The notes under the pieces are model-generated. The model was not told the DNA's origin. It searched no databases and saw nothing but the letters and a program-made list of their open reading frames with translations. A DNA stretch of 64,000 nucleotides, taken from positions 7,191 through 71,190 of the forward strand of contig JANLHB010000005.1 in NCBI GenBank assembly GCA_024654625.1, in the 5' to 3' direction. This document shows, piece after piece, positions 48,691 through 61,948 of the stretch; the first letter of the stretch is position 1, and every line of letters starts with the position of its first letter. The DNA is from Patescibacteria group bacterium. GTDB taxonomy: Bacteria; Patescibacteriota; Minisyncoccia; GCA-002772825. Both the position numbers and the translations under genes were made by a program.

Positions 48691-49737
48691 TTCAACCTTG
48701 AAGTGCAACACTCCATACTTCTAATGGGGTCTTCCAGTCGAGGCGTTTCCTCGGACGATTGTTAATTTCACTTTCAACATATTTAATCTCTTCGTCGGTA
48801 ATTATACTAAAGTCTGTTTTCTTTGGGAAATAATCTCTAATCAAACCATTGGTATTTTCATTTGTCCCCCTTTCTCCCGAACAATACGGATGGGCATAGA
48901 AACAACTAAGTCCAATCTCTTTTTCGATAGTTGGCCAATCACTGTTCTCCGGCCCGTTATCTAAAGTAATTGTCTGTTTAAGTCTTTTCGGGACATCCTT
49001 AAATCTCTGCCCCATGGCATCCGTTGTTGCTTTAGCCGTCTTGTCTTTAAGTTTTGTTATGAAAACAATCCCTGACTTTCTCTCTACGGCAGTATTGATA
49101 CCCGGCTTATGGTTCACTGACTCTACGCTGTCTCCCTCCCAGTCTCCAAACCTGACACGAGTATCAATAATGTCCGGCCGCATATCTATGGAAACACCCT
49201 TTGGTTTAAAGATTCTTTGACATCTTCTGGTCCCATTTTTAATCCTCCTTTTTCTTCTTCGGCGCAAATACCGGCGCAAATCTTCATGTCCGGGGCGGAG
49301 ACAGCCCCAGCCATTGCGGTGAACCTGGGCATAGATGTATTGATAAATCGCTTCATGGGAAATCTTCTCTTTTAGGTCAGCTTGTATCCTTCCCGCGATC
49401 TGTTCTGGAGACCATCGGCGCTTCAGCTTTTGGACCACATATGACCGGATTTGATCATTTTTCAGCCTTTCCATTCTCCCACGACTTTTTCTCTTCCCGA
49501 GCGCTCTTTCATGAGCGGCGCGAGGAGTATATCTTTTCCTTTCAATCGGATTATTCCTTTGCAGCTCTCTTGATATTGAGGCCGGGTTTCGACCTATCTC
49601 TGCGGCAATTCTTCTGACCGAAGCTTTTTGCCACAACATTTCTTGTATTTTTTCCCTTTCCTCAATCGTTAAATGCTTGTATTTCATAACACTTTGATAT
49701 TATCTGTTTAATCAAAGTGTTGCACTTACTTGTTGAA
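48691..49737 (-). mobile_element. IS30-family insertion sequence (about 1047 bp) with imperfect ~20-bp terminal inverted repeats
   Basis: The left end, ttcaaccttgaagtgcaacact (48691-48712), is the reverse complement of the right end, agtgttgcacttacttgttgaa (49716-49737). It encloses a single transposase ORF. Confidence 0.7.
48692..49687 (-). CDS. IS30-family DDE transposase
   Basis: N-terminal HTH (LTIEEREKIQEM). DDE region with FGDWEGDSVES and TLDNGPENS. Confidence 0.75.
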   Translation of the reverse strand: MKYKHLTIEEREKIQEMLWQKASVRRIAAEIGRNPASISRELQRNNPIERKRYTPRAAHERALGKRKSRGRMERLKNDQIRSYVVQKLKRRWSPEQIAGRIQADLKEKISHEAIYQYIYAQVHRNGWGCLRPGHEDLRRYLRRRRKRRIKNGTRRCQRIFKPKGVSIDMRPDIIDTRVRFGDWEGDSVESVNHKPGINTAVERKSGIVFITKLKDKTAKATTDAMGQRFKDVPKRLKQTITLDNGPENSDWPTIEKEIGLSCFYAHPYCSGERGTNENTNGLIRDYFPKKTDFSIITDEEIKYVESEINNRPRKRLDWKTPLEVWSVALQG

Positions 49738-57033: not shown

Positions 57034-58074
57034 TTATATCCTAAACTCAATCACATCGCCGTCTTTTACTATATACTCCTTCCCTTCCGTCCTTAAAAGC
57101 CCTTTCTCACGCGCGACTGCGTATGAGCCTGCAGCCAACAAATCTTGCCAATTTATAACATCGGCTCGTATAAACTTCTCTTTAAAATCAGTATGGATAG
57201 CGGCTCCCGCTTCCGGAGCTGTAGAGCCTTTCTTTATAGTCCACGCGCGAGTCTCCTCCGGCCCGACAGTAAAATAATTCATAAGCCCTAAAAGCTCGTA
57301 TGCCTCTGTAATAAGTTTATCTATATCACTTTCCACTTCAAGTTCCCTCATCTCCTCTTCTGTCATACTGCTCAATTCTTCTTCAAGTTTAATATCCAAG
57401 ACGATGTGCCTCTTGGCTTTCAATTCCTCAGGTATCAGAGAAGAGCCTGAGGAATTATAAATATACAAGACCGGCTTCATGGTAAGGAGGTGAAGATCTT
57501 TCACTAGCTCCGCTTCCCCTTCATCGAAGCCACTCTCCCGAGCAGGCTTACCACTCTCCAAGGCCGCTTTCACTTTCTCTATGGCACTCATCTTCTTCAC
57601 CGCCTCTTTGTCTTGCATTTTCACTTCCTTCTTAAGCTTGTCAGCCCTCTTGGTCACAGTATCAAGATCAGCAAGCACAAGCTCCGTCTCGATAATCTCA
57701 ATGTCGTTCAAGGGGTCTATCTTGTTGTGGACATGGATAATATTATCATTCTTGAAGACACGCACCACCTGAGCGATAGCGTCTACCTCTCTTATATGGG
57801 AGAGGAACTTGTTCCCCAGGCCTTCGCCCTCGGCCGCACCCTTCACTAGTCCGGCAATATCTACGAACTCCATCGCCGCAGGGATAATCTTCTTCGAGTC
57901 CAGTAAACGGCTCAACCGGCTGAGCCGTTCGTCCGGCACCTCCACCACACCTACCGAAGGGTCGATAGTGCAGAAAGGGTAATTAGAGGCATCAACCCCT
58001 TTCTGAGTTAAAGCATTAAAGAGCGTGGACTTCCCCACGTTTGGCAAACCGACAATTCCTACAGATAATGACAT
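57034..58074 (-). CDS. ychF: ribosome-binding ATPase YchF (Obg family, with a TGS domain)
   Basis: [19 protein letters not shown] and the C-terminus [17 protein letters not shown]. Confidence 0.85.
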
Positions 58075-59532: not shown

Positions 59533-60957
59533 CTATACGACCTGCACCAAGATAAGATTAGTCGTCCCCGAGGAGCCGAAGGGAATACCGGCTGAGATCA
59601 CTATTTTATCTCCCTTCTTCACGAGACCGGTCTTTGCCGCCTCTTCTTTAGCGACATCTATCATGGCGTCATGGTCTTTTATATTTTTTATCTTTTTTGA
59701 AAATGTGCCGAAGCTTAAGGCCATCATGTTGCGCACCTTTTCGTCATGAGTAAGGGCGAGGACCGGTTGCTTTGGCCGCCACCTTGAGATCATTCTGGCT
59801 GAAGAACCGGAGCTGGTAAAAACGACGATAAGTTTAGCGTCCAAGCGATAAGCCGTCCGACAGACTGATGCGCTTATAGAATCTACCACCGAGAGGTTGA
59901 TCCCGTCGCTTATAGACTTCAAAACCTGCTCATAAGGGAAAGACTTCTCCGTGTGCCGGCAGACTGAGGCCATCGTCTCAATAGCCTCCACTGGGTAAGC
60001 GCCGAGAGCCGTCTCCTCAGAGAGCATTATAGCGTCTGTGCCGTCAAGCACTGCATTAGCTATGTCGCTCACTTCGGCCCTTGTCGGCCGAGGGTTCTTT
60101 ATCATCGACTCCAAGACCTGAGTCGCGGTGATGACGGGCTTCCCCTTCTCGTTGCATTTTTTTATTATCATTTTTTGGATGAGGGGCACCTCCTCTAAAG
60201 GCACTTCTATGCCGAGGTCACCACGCGCCACCATTACTCCGTAAGCCTCGTCTATTATCTCGTCTAATTTTGAGACGGCTTCCTTTGTCTCTATCTTAGC
60301 GATAACTCCCGCCGAAGAACCACTCTTCTCTATAATCTTCTTAAGCACTTTCACATCTTCCCCCTTCTTCACGAAAGAGAGCGCCACGAAATCAACATCA
60401 TGCTTTAAGGCAAACTCCAAGTCTTTCTTATCTTTAGCAGTGAGAGCCGAAATACCTACGGAGACACCGGGGAGGTTCACCCCCTTCTTCGACTTCAGCT
60501 CCCCTCCCACAATGACGGTAGAGAAGACATTATTTCCCGAGACCTTATCCACCTCAAGCTTCTTTGAGCCGTCTTCCAACATTACAAAATCGCCCTTCTT
60601 TATCTTTAGGGTTATGTCTTTGCAATTGATAGAGACGATACTCTCGTCCCCCATTATGTCGTCCACGGTAAGAGTGAACTTGGCGCCCTTCTTTAGGAAT
60701 ATTTTACCGTCTTTGAAGTCGCCTATCCTTATCTTCGGTCCGGCAAGGTCTGCCAAGATAGCCATAGGCTTATCAAGTGCCTTAGAGACTTTGCGCACCA
60801 TCTTGATCTTGGCAAGGTGCTCAGCGTAGTTACCATGAGAGAAGTTGAGGCGCGCGACATTGAGCCCGGCTTTTGCCATCTTAAGGAGCGTCTCTTCATT
60901 CTCGCTCACCGGACCGATGGTCGCCACTATCTTAGTTTTCTTCGCGTTCGTTAGCAT
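59533..60957 (-). CDS. pyk: pyruvate kinase
   Basis: KTKIVATIGPVSENEETL...NVARLNFSHG. Confidence 0.85.
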   Translation of the reverse strand: MLTNAKKTKIVATIGPVSENEETLLKMAKAGLNVARLNFSHGNYAEHLAKIKMVRKVSKALDKPMAILADLAGPKIRIGDFKDGKIFLKKGAKFTLTVDDIMGDESIVSINCKDITLKIKKGDFVMLEDGSKKLEVDKVSGNNVFSTVIVGGELKSKKGVNLPGVSVGISALTAKDKKDLEFALKHDVDFVALSFVKKGEDVKVLKKIIEKSGSSAGVIAKIETKEAVSKLDEIIDEAYGVMVARGDLGIEVPLEEVPLIQKMIIKKCNEKGKPVITATQVLESMIKNPRPTRAEVSDIANAVLDGTDAIMLSEETALGAYPVEAIETMASVCRHTEKSFPYEQVLKSISDGINLSVVDSISASVCRTAYRLDAKLIVVFTSSGSSARMISRWRPKQPVLALTHDEKVRNMMALSFGTFSKKIKNIKDHDAMIDVAKEEAAKTGLVKKGDKIVISAGIPFGSSGTTNLILVQVV

Positions 60958-61180
60958 AAGATATAAGTTTATATCCTAGGCACCTCTTTAGCAAACCCCG
61001 AGGCGGATTGACATGAATCCAACGGCTCGACCAGCTGAGCCGTTCAAGAGAGGCCTGCCTCCTGCATGCGCCATGCCTGCGCATGCGGGAGGCAGGCGCT
61101 TAGGAAATTATATAATATGAGTAACACGGACGCTAAGGTTGCATTTGAATAAAAATAAGGTAGAATGTTTTAGTAAGTTT

Positions 61181-61256
61181 GGGCCGGTAGCTCATCTGGT
61201 AGAGCGCCTCATTTGCACTGAGGAGGTGGCGGGTTCGAGTCCTGTCCGGTCCACCA
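61181..61256 (+). tRNA. tRNA-Ala (anticodon UGC) with the G3:U70 identity pair and an encoded CCA
   Basis: gggccggtagctcatctggtagagcgcctcatttgcactgaggaggtggcgggttcgagtcctgtccggtccacca folds as a cloverleaf. A TTGCAT-16-TAGAAT promoter lies at 61139-61166 and a terminator hairpin at 61268-61290. Confidence 0.85.
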
Positions 61257-61407
61257 ATTTAAAACATTAGCACCTGAAAAGGTGCTTTTTGTTTTTTGGT
61301 GGACCCGAAGCGAGCCAAATGTTTGGCTCGTGTCAGGACGAGAAAGGATTTTCGTTATGAACGAGCCGGAGGTGAGAGAATCGAAAATCACCTGGATATG
61401 TAATAGC

Positions 61408-61427
61408 CGAGTCCTGTCCGGTCCACA
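61408..61427 (+). repeat. direct repeat of the last ~18-20 nt of tRNA-Ala (an att-like duplicate of the 3' end) 152 bp downstream of the tRNA
   Basis: cgagtcctgtccggtcca at 61408-61425 is identical to 61236-61253. Confidence 0.7.
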
Positions 61428-61495
61428 ACGTCAAAACCCCCTCTTCACAGACGGGGGTTTTGTTTTTCCATTATTTGTGTATAATTATTATTAAT

Positions 61496-61948
61496 ATGAC
61501 AACGTACTTAACACTTGAAGGTTTGGAAAAGATGAAAAAAGAGCTTGAACACCTAAAAACTGTTAAAAGAAAAGAGATAGCCGAAGAACTTGAAACAGCC
61601 ATATCTTTCGGCGACTTAAAAGAAAACGCTTCCTATCAATCAGCCAAAGACGCCCAGGGTCTTATGGAAGAGAGAATAATGGAAATTGAAGACGCAATAA
61701 GAAATTCAGTAGTCGCCAAAAAAAATAAAAGCGATAAAATTCAAATAGGCTCCAAGGTCAAAGCAAAAATTGATAATTCGGAGAAGACCTTCCATATAGT
61801 GAGTCCGAGCGAATCTGACCCGCTTGAAGGAAAGATTTCCTACCAATCGCCGATAGGCAGAGCTCTAATGGAGAAACTCCTTGGAGAAAAAATTAAAATT
61901 GAAACACCAGGCGGAATAAAAGACTGTGAAATACTAAGTATTGAGTAG
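61496..61948 (+). CDS. greA: transcription elongation factor GreA
   Basis: MTTYLTLEGLEKMKKELEHLK...FGDLKENASYQSAKD. Confidence 0.8.
   Translation: MTTYLTLEGLEKMKKELEHLKTVKRKEIAEELETAISFGDLKENASYQSAKDAQGLMEERIMEIEDAIRNSVVAKKNKSDKIQIGSKVKAKIDNSEKTFHIVSPSESDPLEGKISYQSPIGRALMEKLLGEKIKIETPGGIKDCEILSIE

Follow-up and report, generated by a model that had tools for sequence, protein, structure and literature searches.

Direct and inverted fragments of tRNA-Ala between an intact tRNA-Ala gene and greA: possible debris of several gene copies

The region between tRNA-Ala and greA

The window, i.e., the whole 64-kb stretch of DNA that was analyzed, comes from a Parcubacteria (Patescibacteria) MAG. It carries a single tRNA gene, an intact tRNA-Ala(UGC) with encoded CCA at positions 61181-61256 of the plus strand, on which ARAGORN and Rfam agreed (RF00005, 61.6 bits). 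Its left neighbor is the pyruvate kinase gene pyk (59533-60957, minus strand; PF00224 and PF02887). To the right lies greA (61496-61948, plus strand; PF01272 and PF03449 on homologues), which served as the anchor for comparison with relatives and is followed by ddl and uvrC. Between the tRNA gene and greA, a terminator (T1), an inverted tRNA stub (61295-61308), 99 nt of orphan DNA, a direct tRNA stub (61408-61439) and a second terminator (T2) were found in this order.

A putative tRNA-Ala promoter of subtype alpha (TTGCAT, 16 nt, TAGAAT; 61139-61166, plus strand) was recognized by reading of the sequence. Since the consensus promoter scan missed this site, its function as a promoter is assigned with reserve. 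The block TTGCATTT...TAAGGTA(A/G)AAT was kept 5' of tRNA-Ala in six related loci. Farther upstream, an intergenic hairpin (AACGGCTCGACCAGCTGAGCCGTT) was located at 61021-61045; 23 of its 25 bases recur in the coding region of ychF (57906-57930), and the hairpin was also present in relative L001 (5496-5521). A G+C-rich palindrome with 19-bp arms (61053-61097) adjoins it.

The earlier note had reported that the last 18 nt of the tRNA gene recur exactly downstream and are followed there by CAA in place of CCA. Both statements were confirmed. The 18-mer CGAGTCCTGTCCGGTCCA has exactly two copies in the window, at 61236-61253 and 61408-61425, and as the base after it (C) is common to both copies, the exact repeat is in fact 19 nt long. 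Copy 1 (61236-61254, plus strand; 18-mer search and alignment) extends from C56 of the T-loop to the discriminator base plus 1. After the 19-mer, copy 1 reads C-A-A-T-T-T and copy 2 A-A-C-G-T-C. Identity between the copies was 19/19, with a sharp loss of similarity on either side. Allowing up to 3 mismatches to the 18-mer, the number of matches expected by chance was 0.02, and two matches were reached in none of 100 shuffles. The copies are spaced 172 bp from start to start, with 151 bp between the CCA and the second copy. Copy 2 (61408-61426) together with its CCA-less trailer CAACGTCAAAACCC forms the direct stub (61408-61439, plus strand).

A second, degenerate tRNA gene at this place, which according to the earlier note would have spoken against an att-like repeat, was ruled out. 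ARAGORN found no second tRNA or cloverleaf, Rfam reported none at E ≤ 10 over 60950-61520, and a Smith-Waterman alignment of the tRNA unit against 61297-61445 ended at the left edge of the 19-mer, with nothing further upstream. A longer tRNA match suggested by tblastn was due to the 32-nt identity only. What survives at the downstream copy is thus the terminal quarter of a tRNA gene. Copy 2 with its flank (CGAGTCCTGTCCGGTCCACAACGTCAAAACCC) was identical in 30 of 32 positions to the 3' end and trailer of a complete tRNA-Ala in relative L111, which is encoded between pyk and greA on the other strand and ends in ...GGTCCA followed by CAACGTAAAAATCC, without encoded CCA. Judged from its sequence, the downstream copy stems from a true tRNA-Ala gene, of which a cut inside the T-loop left the 3' end as an orphan. 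The trailer of the direct stub is of the L111 type and that of the intact gene of the L108 type, so two different alleles stand side by side in the window.

T1 (AGCACC TGAAAA GGTGCT; 61269-61286, plus strand) was found by terminator prediction on both strands. Since it is flanked by an A-tract and a T-tract, it is predicted to be able to act in both directions. T2 (61433-61467, plus strand; predicted from a hairpin plus T-run at 61440-61457) is located directly 5' of the greA promoter. Its position 5' of greA was kept in L101 (81% identity over 61433-61500), L106 and L110.

The inverted stub at 61295-61308 (TTTGGTGGACCCGA), which had been missed in the earlier note, reads TCGGGTCCACCAAA on the minus strand. 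It is a 14/14 reverse complement of a tRNA-Ala 3' end plus trailer in the allele of L106 and L001. The 14-mer occurs once in the window, with 0.03 occurrences expected by chance. As it has the acceptor-stem allele CGGG of L106 and L001 and not CCGG as in the window gene, it derives from another gene copy, and we infer that it is the remnant of a convergent second tRNA-Ala copy. Stub and intact gene together form the ends of a 58-nt palindrome around T1 (61248-61305), with the tRNA 3' end GGTCCACCAA as one outer arm and its complement TTGGTGGACC as the other. The DNA fold of this palindrome had a free energy of -20.9 kcal/mol (z = -6.9).

The orphan interior and its folding

The segment of about 150 bp between the repeats contains, as the earlier note had described, the tRNA terminator hairpin, which is T1, and a second hairpin (gagccaaatgtttggctc, 61312-61329). 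Its inner part, 99 nt at 61309-61407, showed no similarity to any fetched locus. This interior includes the second hairpin (at about 61311-61330), an imperfect palindrome at about 61323-61369 as an alternative fold, and a further hairpin at 61370-61393. Nucleotide comparison with the fetched relative loci gave no significant similarity (z below 1.1), and nothing similar was found in the rest of the window. An origin of the interior by decay of intergenic DNA or genes known from the relatives was rejected, since nucleotide similarity was lacking and translated comparison gave only noise. No match was obtained in the INPHARED phages. Matches in IMG/VR to the 18-mer, to the hairpin and to a degenerate 17-mer were chance matches in coding sequence or unrelated. 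The search for the interior elsewhere that had been proposed in the earlier note thus ended without a match in phages, viral contigs and fetched related loci. No credible ORF was present in the interior, where the spurious ones were featureless and 35-70 aa long, and the whole bracketed 151-bp segment held no integrase, no cargo and no credible ORF.

One of the viral contigs from IMG/VR, L115, carries a tRNA 3' half directly before a tRNA 5' half (1380-1700). A motif of about 25 nt (GATCGGTTATCCAC...AATGGAGAG) occurs there twice, about 165 nt apart. The pattern is reminiscent of a phage-borne series of interrupted tRNA genes and is unrelated to the tRNA-Ala locus.

The interior folded better than shuffled sequences (z = -3.85), and even more so together with the flanking stubs (z = -4.4), with the ends closed by pairing. 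A small structured RNA was therefore considered, located between T1 and T2 (61296-61430) and representing either an sRNA gene or a leader of greA, in which the segment antisense to the tRNA 3' end would pair with the mimic of the tRNA 3' end. Besides the fold, the terminators on both sides and a weak Rfam match to the leader of the Gre family (rnk; 20.6 bits, E = 0.47) are consistent with such an RNA. However, the pairing of the ends follows automatically from the presence of two tRNA stubs, and the minus strand of the region folded nearly as well (z = -3.9). No Rfam family was matched at threshold and no promoter-like site was found. The region was absent from every fetched relative, L111 included, so that no conservation or covariation supports an RNA. 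Overall, we consider a small RNA quite unlikely. Named RNA families were rejected as well. A permuted (two-piece) tmRNA reached 11.1 bits with RF04321 at a gathering threshold of 47, with T-arm, CCA and spacer only, and ARAGORN found no tmRNA. A tmRNA, a T-box and an SRP-like RNA, suggested by the paired ends and by the resemblance of GGTGGACC to a T-box core, had no support from Rfam.

Related loci

Informative relatives were obtained by exact look-ups of GreA homologues and, in the case of L001, via Pyk. A GreA search of metagenome contigs and a Pyk search of GTDB genomes yielded mostly distant, non-syntenic loci. Nucleotide identity of greA to the window was 92.7% for L111 and L112, 82% for L101-L105 and for L108, 80% for L110, 79% for L109, and 78% for L106 and L107. 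L111 was the closest relative found, for greA as well as for ddl.

In the window and in L106, tRNA-Ala and greA share a strand; in L111, L108 and L102, the two genes are on different strands. Two promoter/leader subtypes of tRNA-Ala were distinguished (compared over 61125-61190 of the window and in L001, L106, L111, L108 and L102), which are correlated with the orientation of the gene to greA. In L106, the leader of tRNA-Ala and the first bases of the gene are present a second time in inverted form (2095-2180; GGGCCCGCCCGCACACTAAC vs. GTTAGTGTGCGGGCCC), 5' of the real gene. Gene order around tRNA-Ala and greA differed in every relative. Depending on the relative, a VTT-domain gene, a CDP-alcohol phosphatidyltransferase, a pilin-like gene, a 185-aa Cys-rich ORF or an rve transposase is located in or near the locus; in L101, the rve transposase is inserted beside the VTT gene, at the place where L102 carries tRNA-Ala. 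CCA is encoded in the window, in L108, in L106 and probably in L102, the contig of which ends ...CC. It is absent from L111 and from most other fetched Parcubacteria tRNA genes.

L108 and L110 share a homologous G+C-rich non-coding stretch (2650-2795 and 1-140, respectively; Smith-Waterman z = 5.3), which ends AACACCAC(CA) just before a terminator, 5' of greA or tRNA-Ala. No Rfam family matched this stretch, which could be an unnamed small RNA of the clade.

A hairpin identical to T1, with the same loop, adjoins the reversed tRNA-Ala of L108, and positions 61269-61308 of the window are collinear with T1 and the start of the reversed complete tRNA-Ala of L108 (90% identity over 42 aligned positions). 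In absolute terms, the asymmetric loop TGAAAA of T1 points the same way in L108 as in the window, with the intact gene on opposite sides; relative to the tRNA, the loop is thus oriented oppositely in L108 and in the window. A short relic on the left side in L108 (ACCAC) is the outer arm of a perfect palindrome with 23-bp arms at T1. The orientation of the T1 loop fits a presumed ancestral convergent pair of genes and not a cassette that travelled with the tRNA 3' end.

The flanking genes gave discordant affinities. Compared with L111, identity of the window was 92.7% for greA, 95% for ddl and 76% for pyk; compared with L108, it was 85% for pyk, 82% for greA and 78% for ddl. The discordance with L111 reflects either a recombination breakpoint at tRNA-Ala or a chimeric Logan contig joined inside the tRNA. 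As L112 begins inside the tRNA, the linkage across the tRNA in L111, which is a Logan contig, may be chimeric.

A similar doubt was examined for the window itself. Contig JANLIG010000015.1 of the NCBI MAG GCA_024653605.1 is identical to the window up to 61349 and ends there. Its end could represent an assembly break or population heterogeneity. Positions 61349/61350 form the center of the imperfect palindrome at about 61323-61369, which is a plausible cause of an assembly break. This contig end and the discordant flanks would be in line with an assembly artefact, in which sequences of two co-occurring strains were joined into the window contig and both tRNA ends never stood on one chromosome; moreover, tRNA genes are often break points in these metagenome assemblies. 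Against it, a join at a shared k-mer gives one copy and not two copies 172 bp apart, and 19 nt is shorter than the usual assembly k-mers. An identical GreA is present under MCR4284333.1 and MCR4342366.1 on two contigs, and two assemblies agree on the part left of 61349, which includes the intact gene, T1 and the inverted stub. A simple join of MAG contigs at 61349 is unlikely as well, since the NCBI contig has the opposite orientation and breaks at the palindrome center. An artefact of assembly is, in our judgement, very unlikely.

Origin of the tRNA fragments

The earlier note had interpreted the direct repeat as an attL/attR signature. In this interpretation, an element with an attP bearing a tRNA-Ala 3' end would have been inserted into the tRNA gene and then lost. 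The intact gene would be attL, with the 5' part of the host gene and with 3' end, CCA and T1 given by the element; the 19-mer with the following CAACGT would be attR, i.e., the displaced host end; and a later internal deletion would have taken nearly the whole element, with 151 bp left. Each of these steps is a tentative proposal. The repeat itself agrees well with them. The tRNA 3' end is repeated in the same orientation, with 19/19 identity and an abrupt drop on both sides, and the distal copy has a native-type, CCA-less trailer as in L111 and typical of the group, next to a proximal copy with an atypical encoded CCA. The repeat spans the tRNA from T-loop to 3' end and in this respect appears similar to many att blocks in tRNA genes; according to work by Williams from 2002, identity blocks of this kind reportedly often begin in the T-loop and continue to the 3' end. 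Integration is a pervasive source of partial tRNA genes (PMC9897764), later inversions can place full and partial copies on opposite strands (PMC9897764), and scattered partial tRNAs mark old integrations (bioRxiv 10.1101/2020.12.28.424599).

Of the att signature, the displaced tRNA 3' end with its native-type trailer was upheld; a mobile element was not supported. An integrase search within the 64-kb window gave a negative result: no tyrosine or serine recombinase was detected between the repeats or in a Pfam scan of 40 ORFs. The only mobile-element protein detected in the window was an IS30-like transposase (HTH_38 plus a weak rve; 48692-49687, minus strand). The sequence 3' of the proximal repeat, CCA-T1 with the adjoining stub, is collinear with the chromosomal 3' region of tRNA-Ala in L108, which speaks against derivation from an element; in addition, the tRNA of L108 and the T1 loop stand in the opposite relative orientation. 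As an empty site, L111 is ambiguous rather than clean. Its tRNA-Ala has the distal trailer of the window (30/32), but the gene is inverted and has promoter subtype beta, another terminator and another neighbor, with pyk at 76%, and the contig may be chimeric. The inverted stub is not predicted by an integrase model, which furthermore requires a deletion that spared both att sites. All positive evidence for integrase action lies in the repeat, and we regard this origin as possible though rather doubtful. If the two sites recombined as an att pair, 172 bp would be lost and the excision junction would read ...GGTCCAC followed by AACGTCAAAACC. The circular junction would be ...GTAATAGC-CGAGTCCTGTCCGGTCCAC-CAATTTAAAAC, and the predicted attP would consist of GTAATAGC, the 19-mer and CAATTTAAAAC.

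The same repeats could bound a working miniature element, namely a non-autonomous cassette of 172 bp moved in trans by an integrase encoded elsewhere, comparable to a very small cis-mobilizable element (CIME). The 19-nt direct repeats are intact, the interior has the stable fold given above (z = -3.85), and the break at 61349 in the independent assembly of the same organism could reflect population heterogeneity. However, this break is at the center of an imperfect palindrome, which is a common cause of assembly breaks. No second copy was found in the window, the fetched related loci, or the phage or viral collections, and none of the 40 ORFs scanned encodes an integrase. In L108, T1 and the inverted stub are part of the ordinary chromosomal sequence. 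Such an element is exceedingly unlikely. Likewise, we judge it highly improbable that the 172-bp unit is functional and the smallest known non-autonomous integrative att cassette, which would swap tRNA-Ala 3' end, CCA and terminator in trans, or that the convergent tRNA-Ala palindrome is a programmed flip-flop by which the gene is re-oriented in these reduced genomes.

An att pair is less favored because CCA-T1 belongs to the chromosome in L108, a third piece in the window is an inverted stub of another allele, the gene at the candidate empty site runs in the other direction with another promoter subtype, and no part of an element was found. On account of these objections, reduction of several tRNA-Ala copies to one is the preferred explanation. 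The locus would then be the debris of several tRNA-Ala copies that were lost by recombination and deletion at a rearrangement hot spot, to which we assign a probability of about 0.5. The lineage would once have had more than one tRNA-Ala beside greA, i.e., a convergent pair sharing T1 and a further copy directly 5' of T2. Of the ancestral arrangement gene-T1-gene, the left member may have been kept by the window and the right member by L108. General or illegitimate recombination and deletion within and between the near-identical copies would have removed all but one of them, possibly aided by exchange with diverged relatives. The stubs would have been left behind as a passive scar that has no present function and for which no integrase is required. 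The multi-copy ancestor as well as the order and mechanism of the deletions are thus reconstructed from the present arrangement.

Several observations argue for debris of multiple copies. Positions 61269-61308 are collinear with L108, in which a complete tRNA-Ala on the far side of T1 points toward it. The inverted 14-nt stub is beyond chance and comes from another acceptor-stem allele, and two trailer alleles (L111 type and L108 type) are found side by side. Among the relatives, the orientation of tRNA-Ala varies, two promoter subtypes exist, L106 has an inverted leader copy, gene order varies and the similarities of the flanks disagree. Parts of mobile elements were not detected (40 ORFs scanned), cargo is missing and the interior is an orphan. 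On the other hand, no genome with the proposed arrangement was among those recovered, and the ancestor is a reconstruction. The direct stub starts inside the T-loop and is 19/19 identical, just as expected of an att identity block. In this group, CCA is rarely encoded, and the end with CCA plus T1 could be foreign. The flank discordance depends on L111, the Logan contig that is possibly chimeric across the tRNA. The origin of the 99-nt interior is not accounted for, and several separate events are needed.

The feature is an ordinary case of a recombination scar consisting of tRNA gene fragments, a class that is well known. Partial tRNA genes mark sites at which genomes were cut and rejoined, and the tRNA-Ala/greA neighborhood is such a rearrangement hot spot in this Parcubacteria group: among relatives with about 80-93% greA identity, the gene changed in its orientation, its neighbors and its type of trailer (CCA encoded or not). 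The locus is a small case of tRNA genes as recombination substrates in very small genomes and points to no new mechanism. In annotation, the stubs are better not labeled as tRNA genes, nor as att sites as long as an integrase is missing.

Among known systems, the attL/attR partial tRNAs of prophages, ICEs and genomic islands (the Islander signature) share with this locus the intact tRNA followed downstream by its 3' end in a second copy on the same strand, the block from T-loop to 3' end, and the native-type trailer of the distal copy. The locus differs from them in that only 151 bp lie between the repeats, without integrase or cargo, that the regenerated end and the terminator are chromosomal in L108 with the loop oriented oppositely relative to the tRNA, and that a third, inverted stub is present. 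In the tycheposon islands of Prochlorococcus, too, partial tRNAs outlast decayed elements at a hot spot of gene-content change (bioRxiv 10.1101/2020.12.28.424599). Fragmented integrases and cargo accompany the partial tRNAs there, whereas nothing element-like and only the housekeeping neighbors pyk, greA, ddl and uvrC were found here. As in CIMEs, att-like direct repeats bound DNA that contains no integrase. CIMEs, known from the biology of Streptococcus thermophilus ICEs, are kilobases long and share their att sites with a known autonomous ICE; for the present locus, no partner element or integrase is known. Finally, template-switch mutagenesis can produce inverted duplications or extend quasipalindromes around a bidirectional intrinsic terminator. 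The 58-nt palindrome centered on T1, in which the outer arms are the tRNA 3' end and its complement, and the palindrome with 23-bp arms in L108 resemble the products of such an extension. In contrast to these, the inverted stub differs in its allele from the adjacent gene, which favors a separate gene copy as its source.
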